The notes below the pieces were generated by a model that was not told the DNA's origin, made no database searches, and saw nothing but the letters and a program-made list of their open reading frames with translations. The position numbers and the translations under genes were made by a program. DNA of 64,000 bases, from the NCBI GenBank assembly GCA_013298145.1, contig JAAFJO010000009.1:13783-77782 (forward strand). The letters run 5' to 3'. Source of the DNA: Betaproteobacteria bacterium. GTDB taxonomy: Bacteria; Pseudomonadota; Gammaproteobacteria; Burkholderiales; Casimicrobiaceae. This document shows, one piece after another, positions 15,390-26,820 of the stretch. How positions within the stretch are numbered: the first letter of the stretch is position 1; every line of letters begins with the position of its first letter.

Positions 15390-16649
15390 GTGTCCAACAC
15401 CCCAAACTACAACGCCCTCTTCGCTGACCGCATTGACGCATTGAAGCGTGAAGGGCGTTATCGTATTTTTGCAGAGCTGTCTCGCCCGCGCGGACAGTTT
15501 CCTCGCGTAGAGTGGCATGGCGGCGAGCAGATGCGCCAGGTGATCACGTGGTGCTCAAACGATTACTTGGGCATGGGTCACCACCCGGTGGTTCGCGATG
15601 CGATGCTTTCGGCGATCAATGACGGGGCGACAGGCGCGGGCGGCACTCGCAACATCGGCGGTACCAACGCGTACCACATTGAGTTGGAACGCCTCTTGGC
15701 CGCGCTTCACGATAAAGAATCAGCGCTCACCTTTACCTCGGGCTACAGTGCGAATTTGGCATCGCTTTCGGTGTTGGCATCGCTTCTGCCCAACACGGTC
15801 ATCGTCTCCGATTCCGATAATCACAATTCGATGATTGAAGGTATCCGTCGTTCTGGCGCCGAAAAAGTCATCTTCAAACATAACGATCCACGCGATCTCG
15901 AAGCCAAGCTCGCGAGTTTTGCGCCTGAGCGGCCGAAACTGGTGGTCTTCGAGAGCGTTTACTCGATGAGCGGAAATATCGCTCCGATTGGTGAGTTTGC
16001 TCAAATCGCCAAACAGTACGGCGCGATGACGTACCTTGATGAGGTTCACGCGGTTGGGATGTACGGTAACCGTGGCGGTGGCGTATCGCAAGAGCAAGGC
16101 GTCGCCGATCAGATCGACATCATTCAGGGCACGCTCGGTAAAGCATTCGGCATGCAAGGTGGCTATGTCACCGGCTCCGCCGCAATGGTCGATTGCATCC
16201 GCAGTTTTGGCGCATCGTTCATTTTCTCCACGTCGCTTGCGCCAGTGTTGTGTGCGGGCGCGATTGCGAGCGTGTCGCATTTGATGCGTTCGCAAGAAGA
16301 GCGTCGCCTCCAGCGCGAGCGGGTCGCCGAAGTGAAATCGAAGCTACTTGCGCGCGGGCTACCCGTGATACCAAACCCTTCACACATCGTGCCGGTGTTC
16401 GTGGGCGATCCGGTCAAAGTCAAAACCTTGACCGACCGCCTGATGCAAAACCACAACATTTATCTGCAACCGATCAACTATCCGACGGTTGCTCGCGGCA
16501 CCGAGCGCATTCGTATCGCGCCTGGCCCCTGCCACACGAGCGAAATGGTCGATCAATTGATTGACGCGCTGGTCACGGAGTGGGCGATTCTTGGATTGCC
16601 GAAAGAGATGAGCGCGAAAGCGGTGCTCGCGCCGTCTGCGGCGGGCTAG
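15390..16649 (+). CDS. hemA: 5-aminolevulinate synthase (Shemin pathway, PLP-dependent alpha-oxoamine synthase)
   Basis: GTG start with GGAGG 10 nt upstream. It aligns along the whole length with my memory of Rhodobacter ALAS: [40 protein letters not shown], the catalytic-lysine motif GTLGKAFG, and [19 protein letters not shown]. Confidence 0.9.
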
Positions 16650-17590
16650 GCTTCTCCAGACTCTAGCGCAATGCGTGCTGCATCCTCGTGCGCGGCGGAT
16701 TCAACATAGGTGAGCGAAACCTTAGCAAGACGTTCTCTCAATGTCGCCTCAATGATCGGGTGAAGCTTCGAGGCCCGTCCCGCCACGGCAACTGGTTTCA
16801 CACCAAACCGCGCGACCATCGCGTTTGCGAGCCGCGCAAGCTCAATCCCGGCCCCGCGCAAAATCTCACGCGAGATAGGGTCAGCGGCTGCGGTGTCGCG
16901 AACCGCAAGGGCGAGCATTCCAATTTCGCCTCGGTCCTTCGCGTAGAAAAAGGCGCGAGAGCGATCCCAATCGCTCCCGCCCAAGCGCTCAAACATGGCA
17001 ACAGCGAGTGCAGAATCCTTCCACGCGCCAGGCTGCTCGTCCTCATGCCGCCAAATGTGGCGAAGCGCCTCACGCGCCATCCAATAACCACCACCGCCGT
17101 CATCGAGCCCCACACCGCGCCCACCAGCGCGATGGAACGATCCCGAAGAGTCAACATATGCTGCGATTGAGCCAGTTCCCGCATAGACGATGTAGCCCTC
17201 GCCCGGCTTGAATGCGCCGCGATAAGCAACTTCGATATCGCTCATAATCGTTACGCGTCCGGCGGGGATTGCGAAGGCTTCTGCGATGAGTTTGGCAAGT
17301 TCGGGTGAATGACCATCAACGCCCGTGAAACCGCCAGCGATCATGAGGAACGCATCGGCAGGCGAGTGCGCAGCGACAGCAGCCGAGATCTCAGCAAACG
17401 TGGCGCGTAGCCGCTCTAGGCCGTGCGCCGTATGAAGCATGAGCCCGGAGAGGCCGCCCGCGGATCCTTCAGCAAGACGCGCCGAATCCCCCTCAAGCAG
17501 CATCCATCGGGTGGTGGTGCCGCCCGCGTCAAGGCCGAGCGCGATGCAACGCAATCTCTGTGAAGACGCTAATGAGAGCGCTTCGCTCAC
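16646..17590 (-). CDS. BadF/BadG/BcrA/BcrD-type ATPase; N-acetyl-sugar kinase (NagK-II / MurK-like)
   Basis: 314 aa with a GTG start that overlaps the upstream stop (GTGA). It has the phosphate-1 motif [12 protein letters not shown] and GTGSIA. It is the last gene of the amino-sugar operon. Confidence 0.75.
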
Positions 17591-19305
17591 GGCGCGAGAT
17601 CCTTCACGAAGCGATCACTTTCTCGGCCTGATCGATCCACGACCGAGACTGCGACCGCGCTTAACACGCCCTCGCTGGTCGCTCGTGGCACGGTCGTTTC
17701 ACTGGTGCCCGCGCTCGGTGCGCCCGCCACCGGCAACACGGCAAACTGCCAAGACGTGCCATAACGCAACCAGACTGCGAAGTTTCGAGGCTCAGCATCC
17801 GCTCGGAGCGATTTAGCCTCCAGAGAAACTATTCTTTTAAACGCTAGCCCAACGTTATTTGGCGCTGCATCTCTATTTTCTATTAGATCGACGCCCACAC
17901 TATTGGGACGTTCGCCCAAATTTATTCCGGGCGTATAAGAAATAGCTGGATTACGATAAAGCGCTGAGAGACTGGCGTCGATGCCGCGCCGCTTTTGCAT
18001 GATCGGGGCCATGCTGAAATGGATATGCCCCTGCGCAACGTCGCGCTTCGATCGGATCAGAGCGAGCTGGCCCTCGATTTCTTTCGGCTGCCAACCGCGT
18101 GGCGTCTCCTCGATCCGGCTGGTGTAGAGGCCAGGAAAAATATCCCGTTTCAAGGTGTTTTGAGCGTGCCAGTATTCGAGCAGCACTGGAAACGATTGTG
18201 GCGATTGGTCAATCGCCCAATAGAGTTGCGGTGCGAGGTAGTCAAGCCAACCACGTTGCAGCCAAAGCTCGACATCCGCATAAAGTTTGTCGTACTGCGA
18301 AAAGCCTTGAATGCCTGGTGGACGGCGATCAGGTCGGCCAATCCCAAATGGCGAAATGCCAAATCGAACCCACGGCTTCTCTGCTTTCACGCCGCGATAC
18401 ACCCGTTCGACGAAGCGGTTTACGTTGTCCCGCCGCCAGTCGGCGCGCGTGAGTTTGCCGCCGCCCGCCACATACGCTAGCCACGAGGGTTCATCCGGAA
18501 AATCGAGCTCACGCTCAGGACGCGAGGTCACCATGGGCGCAGCTGAATTGAGCGCATTCGCAACCGCGTTTTGCCCGGCTGCCGAAGGTTGTTGAACTGC
18601 GGCTGTTTCGACAACCGGGTATGGATAGAAGTAATCATCAAAGTGAACGCCATCGATGTCATACCGACGCAGCACATCCATGATCACGTTATGCGAATGC
18701 TCTTGCGCCGCACGATCACCCGGATCGAGCCACAAAAAACCACCGTAGCTTTTCACTGCGGCAGGTAGGCGCTTCGCGACATGATCGGCGGAAACGGGCG
18801 AGCTCGCCTTCGTATGCCGCGCGCGGTACGGGTTGAACCATGCATGCACCTCAATACCGCGAAGCCGCGCTTCATCAATCCAAAACTGCAGTGGGTCGTA
18901 GCCCGGTGCCTTGCCTTGCTCGCCTGTGAGCCATTCCGCCCAGGGCTCAAGCGCCGACGGATAGATCGCATCGGCGCCAGGGCGCACCTGCAAAAGCACG
19001 GCGTTCATGTTGAGGGCTTGCACGCGATTCAAGATCGCAATGACCTCGCTTTTTTGCAGCTCCGCGCTCAGCCCCGGTTTCGTTGGCCAATCGATGTTGG
19101 CGACAGTTGCGATCCAAACCGCGCGAAACTCCCGAGGCGTAGGCGGCGGACATCCCGATGAGCGATCCTCCAGCGGGCAAACGCGGAGCGAAGCGGGTTG
19201 CACCGTGATCGGCTCCATCGTTGAACACGACCCGAGAAACCCTAGGAGCGCGAGCAGCGTCCACGTTAGGGGCGTGAGACCCGCAAATCGGCCCGCACGC
19301 CTCAT
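17587..19305 (-). CDS. GHL10-family (DUF187, YddW/DigH-like) glycoside hydrolase lipoprotein
   Basis: The start is refined to ATG 19305, giving MRRAGRFAGLTPLTWTLLALLGFLGSCST (signal peptide plus a lipobox-like LGSC) and an ATGA overlap with the upstream stop. The TIM-barrel-like core FRAVWIATVANIDWP...GIEVHAWFNPY...GVHFDDYFYP is typical of the YddW family. Confidence 0.75.
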   Translation of the reverse strand: MRRAGRFAGLTPLTWTLLALLGFLGSCSTMEPITVQPASLRVCPLEDRSSGCPPPTPREFRAVWIATVANIDWPTKPGLSAELQKSEVIAILNRVQALNMNAVLLQVRPGADAIYPSALEPWAEWLTGEQGKAPGYDPLQFWIDEARLRGIEVHAWFNPYRARHTKASSPVSADHVAKRLPAAVKSYGGFLWLDPGDRAAQEHSHNVIMDVLRRYDIDGVHFDDYFYPYPVVETAAVQQPSAAGQNAVANALNSAAPMVTSRPERELDFPDEPSWLAYVAGGGKLTRADWRRDNVNRFVERVYRGVKAEKPWVRFGISPFGIGRPDRRPPGIQGFSQYDKLYADVELWLQRGWLDYLAPQLYWAIDQSPQSFPVLLEYWHAQNTLKRDIFPGLYTSRIEETPRGWQPKEIEGQLALIRSKRDVAQGHIHFSMAPIMQKRRGIDASLSALYRNPAISYTPGINLGERPNSVGVDLIENRDAAPNNVGLAFKRIVSLEAKSLRADAEPRNFAVWLRYGTSWQFAVLPVAGAPSAGTSETTVPRATSEGVLSAVAVSVVDRSGRESDRFVKDLAP

Positions 19306-26724: not shown

Positions 26725-26802
26725 AACCCTTCTGGAGACGTCGGTCCGGGCAAACGCTCATCATGAGCACTCGCCGCAAAACGAACTACCGATGGCAAAA
26801 AT

Positions 26803-26820
26803 AGTACCACTTTAATACCA
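26803..26820 (-). promoter_or_regulatory. Candidate NagQ operator (tandem TGGTAnT repeats)
   Basis: The minus strand reads TGGTATT-AAAG-TGGTACT, i.e. two heptamers spaced by 4 bp (11-bp period). It lies 79-96 nt upstream of the first operon gene. It matches my recollection of the NagQ motif defined by comparative genomics. Confidence 0.45.

Follow-up and report, generated by a model that had tools for sequence, protein, structure and literature searches.

The window, a 64,000-nt stretch of contig JAAFJO010000009.1 from a Betaproteobacteria bacterium (assembly GCA_013298145.1; Burkholderiales, Casimicrobiaceae), carries nine intact open reading frames (ORFs) on its minus strand, spanning 16646-26724, that would form an operon for the use of the peptidoglycan amino sugars N-acetylglucosamine (GlcNAc) and N-acetylmuramic acid (MurNAc). 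In the direction of transcription, and together with the candidate operator upstream, the predicted features are the following (basis of each call in brackets).

26803..26820, minus strand: candidate operator, direct repeat TGGTATT-N4-TGGTACT (sequence match scan)
25651..26724, minus strand: GH84 beta-N-acetylglucosaminidase, short, cytoplasmic (Pfam NAGidase, E 8.5e-54)
25607..25650, minus strand: GH84-GntR gap of 44 nt, containing TTGTTACACAATGGTTTT (likeness to the ATTACAC motif)
24833..25606, minus strand: regulator of the GntR/HutC subfamily, presumed repressor (Pfam GntR and UTRA)
23700..24836, minus strand: NagA, GlcNAc-6-phosphate deacetylase (TIGR00221, 252 bits)
22657..23703, minus strand: NagB-II-type glucosamine-6-phosphate deaminase, double SIS (NF046059, below cut-off; Pfam SIS twice)
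21748..22650, minus strand: MurQ, MurNAc-6-phosphate etherase (NF003915 and NF009222, above cut-offs)
20456..21751, minus strand: AmpG-family permease of the major facilitator superfamily, MFS (TIGR00901, below cut-off)
19302..20459, minus strand: NagX/HGSNAT-like polytopic membrane acetyltransferase (NF046061, below cut-off)
17587..19305, minus strand: GHL10 lipoprotein of the DigH/YddW and Cwp19 family (Pfam GHL10, 219.6 bits)
16646..17590, minus strand: BadF/BcrAD-type (ASKHA) sugar kinase (Pfam BcrAD_BadFG)

Six of the junctions are 4-nt overlaps (GTGA, ATGA, ATGA, ATGA, ATGA and GTGA) and the other two are gaps, of 44 nt between the GH84 and GntR genes and of 6 nt between those for NagB-II and MurQ; coordinates, overlaps and gaps all coincide with those of a preliminary description of this DNA, and the GC content is uniform with that of the surrounding sequence. 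Pfam and NCBIfam hidden Markov models run on all nine products agreed with the families assigned there and returned no contradicting call. It had also pointed to the lack of NagZ and AnmK, and this extends across the whole 64 kb of the window, as neither tblastn, with E. coli NagZ and two AnmK sequences as queries, nor Pfam searches of the other large ORFs recovered either protein.

The same nine genes are found in the same order in three of the related loci that we compared with the window and labelled with L-numbers (L004, assembly GCA_013298695.1; L167, GCA_965192825.1; L168). Given that gene order is kept in relatives at 53-80% protein identity, the arrangement is no chance juxtaposition. 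The closest relatives (60-80% identity) were not among the matches listed in the scans anchored on GHL10 and GH84, and were found by a separate search for the encoding contigs; nine contigs apparently carry both GH84 and GHL10 matches, two of them confirmed directly. A TonB-dependent receptor (TBDR) gene lies directly upstream of the GH84 string in all three loci. In L004 the string is followed by an AstE/M14-like gene, and the order in L167 is TBDR, SSF (sodium:solute symporter), AnmK, GH84, GntR, NagA, NagB-II, MurQ, AmpG-like, NagX-like, GHL10, kinase and a gene for an Amidase_2 plus PG_binding_1 protein.

A smaller core is much more widespread. The GHL10-anchored scan (one genome per species, tblastn with the nine proteins) covered 80 loci among the matches listed, and in 33 of these, mostly from Burkholderiales, MurQ lies within 10 kb of GHL10, usually in the order MurQ, AmpG-like, (NagX-like), GHL10, kinase. 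Carriers include Massilia, Duganella, Pseudoduganella, Telluria, Pelomonas, Roseateles, Rubrivivax, Methylibium and Inhella, as well as Usitatibacter, Comamonadaceae and a Solibacteraceae (Acidobacteriota) metagenome-assembled genome (MAG), and in Janthinobacterium the order is GntR, MurQ, MFS, GHL10, kinase. The remaining GHL10 loci, from Planctomycetota, Verrucomicrobiota, Bacteroidota and cyanobacteria, showed no MurQ linkage among the matches listed, and GH84 is part of the nine-gene cluster only in the window's own lineage among the loci compared. Recurrent neighbours of the core were nominated by longest-ORF clustering, which yields many antisense artefacts at high GC, and then checked with Pfam and tblastn. 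An AmpD-type gene (Amidase_2 plus PG_binding_1) directly follows the kinase in 29 loci and a PBP4-type Peptidase_S13 gene lies near the module in 15, and others are LdcA-type S66 (few loci), M15, DAO (D-amino-acid-oxidase-like), a beta-lactamase-fold protein and the peptide-binding SBP_bac_5. With such a conserved gene context, a peptidoglycan role of the core is hard to avoid, and the peptidoglycan-sugar theme put forward for the operon is thus borne out by its neighbourhoods. The same neighbourhoods speak against calling it self-contained, since the window's operon has neither the AmpD-type amidase of these 29 loci nor the TBDR of L004, L167 and L168.

Predicted enzymes and regulator

Two of the sugar-phosphate enzymes are identified above curated cut-offs. 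MurQ reaches 354.5 bits against NF003915 (cut-off 168) and 305.4 against NF009222 (cut-off 255), falling slightly short with TIGR00274 (299.7 bits, cut-off 302), and NagA reaches 252 bits against the equivalog TIGR00221 (cut-off 225.65), which makes MurNAc-6-phosphate and GlcNAc-6-phosphate the probable intermediates. The deaminase has two SIS domains; its best NCBIfam match is NF046059 NagB_SO3506 (261 bits, cut-off 430, E 1.4e-77) and the next ones are the GlmS isomerase domain. The permease, with eight or more hydrophobic segments, matches the AmpG family TIGR00901 (173 bits, cut-off 350, E 8e-51) and E. coli AmpG (26% identity over ~400 aa, E 9e-27), and is an AmpG homologue presumed to import GlcNAc-MurNAc or its 1,6-anhydro form, GlcNAc-anhMurNAc, with or without peptide; the Tannerella forsythia homologue of AmpG serves both disaccharides (PMC7670621). 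The NagX-like protein has nine hydrophobic segments and matches NF046061 NagX_SO_3504 (147 bits, cut-off 480, E 7.5e-43). It gave no Pfam match at E<=1e-3 in the window, and its orthologues in L086 and L168 match PF07786 HGSNAT_cat.

Translation of the GHL10 gene is taken to begin at codon 12 of the longest ORF, an ATG at 19305. The N-terminus is then MRRAGRFAGLTPLTWTLLALLGFLGSC, a lipoprotein signal that closes with FLGSC and whose lipobox Cys is nearly invariant among homologues. An identical protein, TAG78854.1, comes from a MAG listed as a Betaproteobacteria bacterium, and the nearest named relatives are in Casimicrobium and Oxalobacteraceae. Matches to PF02638 (219.6 bits), to E. coli DigH (33% identity, E 4e-66) and to Cwp19 (E 6.7e-72; predicted model TM 0.88, root-mean-square deviation 2.8-2.9 Å), and a model comprising a TIM barrel, a low-confidence insert of ~35 residues and a C-terminal beta-sandwich, point to an envelope enzyme presumed to cut peptidoglycan glycan. 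DigH works at the division site as a hydrolase specific for denuded glycans, the bond it cleaves being still undefined (PMC12288456). Cwp19, the closest structural relative among GHL10 proteins, is reported to be a lytic transglycosylase (PMC6016235), a type of enzyme that makes anhydro ends. The products of the operon's GHL10 protein may have reducing or 1,6-anhydro ends.

The kinase has weak matches in the PDB, led by the Sulfolobus hexokinase 2e2n (E 5.7e-13) and 1zc6, a putative GlcNAc kinase (E 5.8e-11), with human NAGK at E 5e-9, the MurNAc/GlcNAc kinase 8zo3 at E 1.5e-7, and 8oqk and 8ow7, both deposited as N-acetylglucosamine kinase, at E 0.01. By these measures its similarity to MurK appears to be no greater than that to GlcNAc kinases or hexokinases. 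The residue preceding the catalytic Asp (the MurK T94 criterion, PMC10465942) was tried as a marker of specificity and set aside, as Thr is also present in human NAGK and 1zc6, and Asn in Clostridium MurK. AnmK and a BadF-type kinase are found together in one cluster both in L167 and in L162 (a second GH84 locus, described below). Given this co-occurrence, the kinase does not stand in for AnmK, and these sister systems evidently use anhydro-MurNAc as a substrate. Two earlier proposals are thus not supported: that of a MurK-like kinase taking the place of AnmK, in view of this coexistence and of the lack of any special similarity to MurK, and that of a hydrolytic, reducing-end, non-anhydro substrate, in view of AnmK in L167 and L162 and of the activity reported for Cwp19. 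The simplest role for the kinase would be the NagK step, acting on GlcNAc released by GH84; MurNAc may be a further substrate.

The regulator combines a GntR winged helix (PF00392) with a UTRA domain (PF07702), which places it in the HutC subfamily; the label NagQ-like repressor used in the preliminary description is sound to that level and goes no further. Its orthologues, 49-64% identical, head murQ modules in Massilia, Duganella and Janthinobacterium. A direct repeat, TGGTATTAAAGTGGTACT, located 79-96 nt ahead of the start of GH84 (26803-26820, minus strand), is the sole match with fewer than three mismatches in the window and is a candidate operator for this repressor. A possible promoter read by eye (TTGACG, 18 nt, TATTAA) overlaps the repeat; a sigma-70 promoter scan called no site upstream of GH84. 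A motif similar to the repeat, of ATTACAC type (TGGTATTACACTGGT or CGCTATTACACTAG), is found in 15 Oxalobacteraceae loci ~25 nt ahead of whichever gene opens the module, GntR or MurQ (~25-30 nt ahead of murQ in the Massilia-type loci). It takes the form TGGTATTACACTGGT in Massilia, whereas in Duganella and Janthinobacterium it is the inverted repeat CGCTATTACACTAGCG (loci L005-L025 and L085). The sequence TTGTTACACAATGGTTTT in the window's GH84-GntR gap is a variant of this motif and is possibly a remnant or an internal operator or promoter; GH84 may, on one view, have joined an older operon led by GntR at its upstream end.

The GH84 protein and the position of NagZ

The first gene of the operon encodes a protein of 354-357 aa with neither a signal peptide nor a transmembrane segment, which matches PF07555 (NAGidase) with 183.3 bits (cut-off 25). 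Aligned to the O-GlcNAcase (OGA) homologue of Oceanicola granulosus (OgOGA), it keeps the catalytic DD pair (LFDDM against LFDD) and the PK(A/G)D and WDNxxxND motifs, and these active-site motifs (DD, PK, WDN..ND) are invariant in 29 homologues. Its AlphaFold model (pLDDT, the predicted local distance difference test score, of 89) retrieved only GH84 folds at the top of the PDB search, the best being the Thermobaculum and Oceanicola OGA homologues, and its helical domain is shortened (354 aa in all, vs 447-463 aa in bacterial OGA homologues). None of the nine operon proteins has a GH3 domain (Glyco_hydro_3, Pfam), and thus any equivalence of the GH84 protein to NagZ would lie in function only.

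The best support for GH84 doing the job of NagZ comes from the alternation of the two families at the head of the module. In the Solibacteraceae locus L037, a GH3 NagZ adjoins NagA and heads the string NagA, NagB-II, MurQ, AmpG, NagX, GHL10, kinase and amidase. GH3 in that locus and GH84 in the window's lineage at the head of the same module is a classical signature of non-orthologous displacement. The link between GH84 and MurQ also occurs in a second architecture: L162, on an unrelated contig and with a GH84 only 49% identical, is a second GH84 and MurQ cluster that is built differently (SSF, MurQ, GntR, NagX, FAD oxidase, NagB-II, NagA, GH84), the BadF-type kinase and AnmK (11915-13048) being convergent to the GH84 string. 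These two observations uphold the earlier placement of GH84 in the logical position of NagZ, and the evidence supports a predicted role as a cytoplasmic NagZ analogue that would split GlcNAc from GlcNAc-MurNAc or GlcNAc-anhMurNAc. The oxidase of L162 (6406-7776, minus strand) is FAD-linked and GlcD/D-lactate-dehydrogenase-like, and would fit the disposal of D-lactate released by MurQ.

NagZ is a drug target for blocking AmpC induction, and a non-homologous enzyme with the same job would matter for inhibitor design and for predicting beta-lactam responses. The link to this operon also gives the cytoplasmic bacterial GH84 proteins a testable physiological role.

Proposed pathway, alternatives and flanking genes

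We propose that the operon encodes an inducible catabolic pathway that would convert the peptidoglycan amino sugars GlcNAc and MurNAc to fructose-6-phosphate, a variant of the AmpG/NagZ/NagK/AnmK/MurQ/NagA/NagB route, and we put the probability of this reading at about 0.62. Each step is assigned from family membership and conserved gene context. The GHL10 lipoprotein would cut peptidoglycan glycan strands in the envelope, and the NagX/HGSNAT-like acetyltransferase may re-acetylate de-N-acetylated glucosamine (GlcN) residues, this being the most speculative step. The AmpG-family permease would bring in GlcNAc-MurNAc and/or GlcNAc-anhMurNAc, from which the cytoplasmic GH84 would take off the non-reducing GlcNAc, the job of the GH3 enzyme NagZ elsewhere. 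The BadF-type kinase would then form GlcNAc-6-phosphate and possibly MurNAc-6-phosphate (for anhydro-MurNAc, an AnmK from another part of the genome would be required), MurQ would convert MurNAc-6-phosphate to GlcNAc-6-phosphate and D-lactate, and NagA and NagB-II would carry GlcNAc-6-phosphate on to fructose-6-phosphate. The GntR/HutC repressor would bind the TGGTAYT direct repeat and presumably be released by a sugar phosphate.

Several points weigh against this proposal. The operon itself lacks genes for an amidase, AnmK and an outer-membrane transporter, and NagB-II, AmpG, NagX and the kinase all score under curated NCBIfam cut-offs, the kinase falling far below that of NagK_SO3507 (E 1.7e-17). 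The operator assignment draws on an apparent likeness of the TGGTATT-type repeat to the NagQ box and on a partial motif match in Massilia loci. The GH84 family is large (4090 matches at E<=1e-10), and its short members mostly stand alone, the copies in Marinobacter and Caulobacter having unrelated neighbours. Among the matches listed, amino-sugar neighbours were seen in only 3 of 80 metagenome loci with homologues 47-57% identical, or 3 of the 47 that are at least 8 kb long; the three are L144, L154 and L162. As most members stand alone, the general substrate of the family may differ. Finally, GHL10 is a mixed family, one member of which is reported to act on starch (PMC9967864).

The sugars could come from foreign cell-wall debris or from the turnover of the cell's own wall, and the catabolic layout and the TBDRs of the sister loci make us lean towards scavenging. 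The same enzymology could instead have a housekeeping function and recycle what the cell's own wall releases on turnover, as happens in E. coli, Pseudomonas and Caulobacter, with GHL10 acting in daughter-cell separation like DigH. An AmpG-family permease, the AmpD-type amidase of sister loci, the action of DigH at the division site (PMC12288456) and AnmK in L167 and L162, which fits the lytic-transglycosylase products of the own wall, would all suit such a role. However, a catabolic NagB-II and a GntR-type repressor are typical of nutrient-inducible pathways, TBDR genes directly precede GH84 in L004, L167 and L168, and genes for D-amino-acid-oxidase-like and peptide-binding proteins surround the Oxalobacteraceae module. 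We regard recycling as the strongest of the alternatives and still an unlikely one.

Somewhat less probable again is that GH84 is no NagZ analogue and trims beta-GlcNAc off another cytoplasmic glycoconjugate, sharing only the regulation of the operon, with a GH3 NagZ encoded elsewhere splitting the disaccharide. The wide distribution of short GH84 proteins mostly away from amino-sugar genes, the OGA homologues as nearest structures and the Oxalobacteraceae modules that do without GH84 would be consistent with this. But GH84 heads the operon, with translationally coupled genes downstream, in at least four members of the lineage, adjoins AnmK in overlapping reading frames in L167, and has its equivalent position taken by GH3 in L037. 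Least likely, and in our judgment improbable, is a GlcNAc/chitooligosaccharide operon of the Shewanella/Xanthomonas nag type, with GH84 (GH84 enzymes are exo-beta-GlcNAcases) as cytoplasmic chitobiase, the MFS protein as chitobiose/GlcNAc permease, the kinase as plain NagK and MurQ as a side branch, for which the best NCBIfam matches of three genes (the Shewanella nag models NagK_SO3507, NagB_SO3506 and NagX_SO_3504) and the loci L144 and L154, where GH84 stands beside only NagA and NagB-II (in the order NagB-II, NagA, GH84), would speak, but against which stand a true MurQ and an AmpG-family rather than NagP-type permease at the centre of the operon, a GHL10 homologous to the peptidoglycan-active DigH and Cwp19, the Amidase_2, S13, S66 and M15 genes of sister loci, and the fact that neither the window nor those related loci that were annotated showed a GH18, GH19, GH20 or chitin-binding gene.

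The proposed peptidoglycan pathway can be extended to a broader hypothesis, which we offer tentatively and as rather less than an even bet. Short cytoplasmic GH84s, widespread in Proteobacteria, may be muropeptide disaccharidases, a non-orthologous replacement of GH3 NagZ cleaving GlcNAc-MurNAc or GlcNAc-anhMurNAc, and together with a glycan-cleaving GHL10 lipoprotein and a NagX/HGSNAT-like acetyltransferase (restoring the N-acetyl group on lysozyme-resistant, de-N-acetylated walls) may form a dedicated peptidoglycan-utilisation locus for Burkholderiales feeding on bacterial necromass. If true, the "bacterial O-GlcNAcase homologues" would get their first physiological role.

Beyond the operon, the following neighbouring features were located in the window.

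27177..28637, plus strand: divergent sodium:solute symporter, possible accessory importer (Pfam SSF)
28771..32806, plus strand: string led by a thiamine pyrophosphate (TPP) riboswitch (RF00059, 65.8 bits)
28842..31151, plus strand: TonB-dependent receptor
31159..31758, plus strand: PnuC-family transporter
31719..32294, plus strand: NadR-C/AAA_28-like kinase
32306..32806, plus strand: DedA/VTT-like protein

The divergent SSF is tentatively an accessory importer, and orthologues adjoin the cluster in two of the related loci, at 79% identity in L168 and 47% in L086. In L167 the AnmK frame (8799-10007) shares nucleotides with the SSF symporter gene before it and with the GH84 gene after it, which hints that this type of SSF imports anhydro-MurNAc. 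The TPP riboswitch lies directly upstream of the window's TBDR gene and parts the SSF from the genes downstream. The TBDR was considered as part of the peptidoglycan system and rejected: with the riboswitch before it and the PnuC-family and kinase genes after it, the TBDR/PnuC/kinase/DedA string is a separate vitamin-salvage unit, and looks like a thiamine-salvage uptake operon with its own outer-membrane receptor. L168 has the same divergent SSF and the same TBDR, PnuC and kinase string as the window.

Further away, an Amidase_2 gene (AmpD/AmiD-type N-acetylmuramoyl-L-alanine amidase) at 49816-50604 on the plus strand, flanked by ispA and a gene for a sigma-54 response regulator, may provide the amidase activity missing from the operon; its product shares only ~25% identity with the amidase encoded after the kinase in related clusters. 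An M14/AstE-like gene (41197-42261, minus strand), 15 kb from the operon, was examined as the displaced tenth gene of L004 (12666-13583) and discarded, the two being not orthologous (E 0.005). A "Gate"/NupC-like transporter gene (PF07670), absent from the window, stands no more than a few kb away from the module in 15 loci, at 67-93% identity (L167, 2753-3991; L086, 3894-5132; L168, 20242-21077; and 12 Oxalobacteraceae loci). Two long ORFs of the window have no Pfam match, at 56873-58858 (661 aa) and 42316-43854 (512 aa), both on the minus strand; the latter overlaps a CcmF ORF on the opposite strand and may be spurious.

Comparison with known systems

In soils and waters, peptidoglycan represents a large store of organic carbon and nitrogen, and to our knowledge the genes with which free-living bacteria feed on it are poorly mapped beyond a few model organisms. 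The locus defines a compact and widely conserved module (MurQ, AmpG-like permease, GHL10 and kinase, usually an amidase and often NagX), which is directly testable as cultivable genera (Massilia, Janthinobacterium and Duganella) carry it. It also yields functional hypotheses for three families of little or no physiological assignment, i.e., cytoplasmic GH84 proteins, GHL10 proteins outside cell division and NagX/HGSNAT-like acetyltransferases.

The nearest studied relatives of two of its proteins differ from them in build and setting. OgOGA and the Thermobaculum terrenum OGA share with the operon GH84 the fold, the catalytic residues and the lack of a signal peptide, but are ~90-100 residues longer, the helical domain being truncated here, and earlier work used them as structural models of the human O-GlcNAcase, whereas the operon context suggests a muropeptide/amino-sugar role. 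DigH (E. coli YddW) and Cwp19 (Clostridioides difficile) share with the operon GHL10 a homologous TIM barrel (33-34% identity) and a lipoprotein or surface location, and peptidoglycan glycan is the substrate in both studied cases, while here it is predicted from homology; neither is encoded in a sugar-catabolic operon, as the GHL10 protein is, and neither has its extra insert of ~35 residues and C-terminal beta-sandwich.

Among whole systems, recycling of the E. coli type (AmpG, NagZ, AmpD, NagK, AnmK, MurQ, NagA, NagB), known also in Caulobacter (PMC13046382), follows the same logic, with fructose-6-phosphate as end product, and shares four parts with the operon, namely an AmpG-family permease, MurQ, NagA and the GlcN-6-phosphate deaminase step. 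However, the E. coli genes are scattered and here they form one operon, in which GH84 takes the place of NagZ (GH3), the deaminase is an SIS-type NagB-II, the kinase is BadF-type (E. coli NagK is ROK-type), AnmK and AmpD are lacking, GHL10 and a NagX-like protein are built in, and the regulator is of the GntR/HutC rather than the RpiR type of MurR. Scavenging by T. forsythia (AmpG, MurT, MurK, MurQ; PMC7670621, PMC10465942) takes up exogenous GlcNAc-MurNAc and GlcNAc-anhMurNAc through an AmpG homologue, and has in common with the operon a route independent of the phosphotransferase system, an ASKHA sugar kinase with MurQ, and no AnmK at the locus. T. forsythia is an auxotroph that salvages MurNAc for wall synthesis, whereas NagA and NagB-II here point to catabolism; the operon kinase is not detectably nearer to MurK than other sugar kinases are and so differs from the Tannerella enzyme, and GH84, GHL10 and NagX are absent from the described Tannerella system. 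The GlcNAc clusters of Shewanella and Xanthomonas (NagP, NagX, NagA, NagB-II, NagK; NagQ/NagR; PMC4173781) likewise combine NagA, NagB-II, a NagX-like protein, a BadF-type kinase and a GntR-family repressor; compared with them, an AmpG-family permease replaces NagP, GH84 replaces GH20 hexosaminidases, MurQ and GHL10 are added and there is no chitinase.

Full-text literature searches found no paper with MurQ or the etherase together with GH84 or O-GlcNAcase, and none linking MurQ with GHL10, YddW, DigH or Cwp19, in agreement with the preliminary description, which knew of no characterised system with this combination. Judged by its genes, the operon is thus an uncharacterised variant of known peptidoglycan recycling and scavenging and not a new kind of system. 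What sets it apart from the known routes is the packaging into a single operon, GH84 in place of GH3, the inclusion of GHL10 and a NagX-like protein, the SIS-type NagB-II, the BadF-type kinase and the GntR-type regulator.

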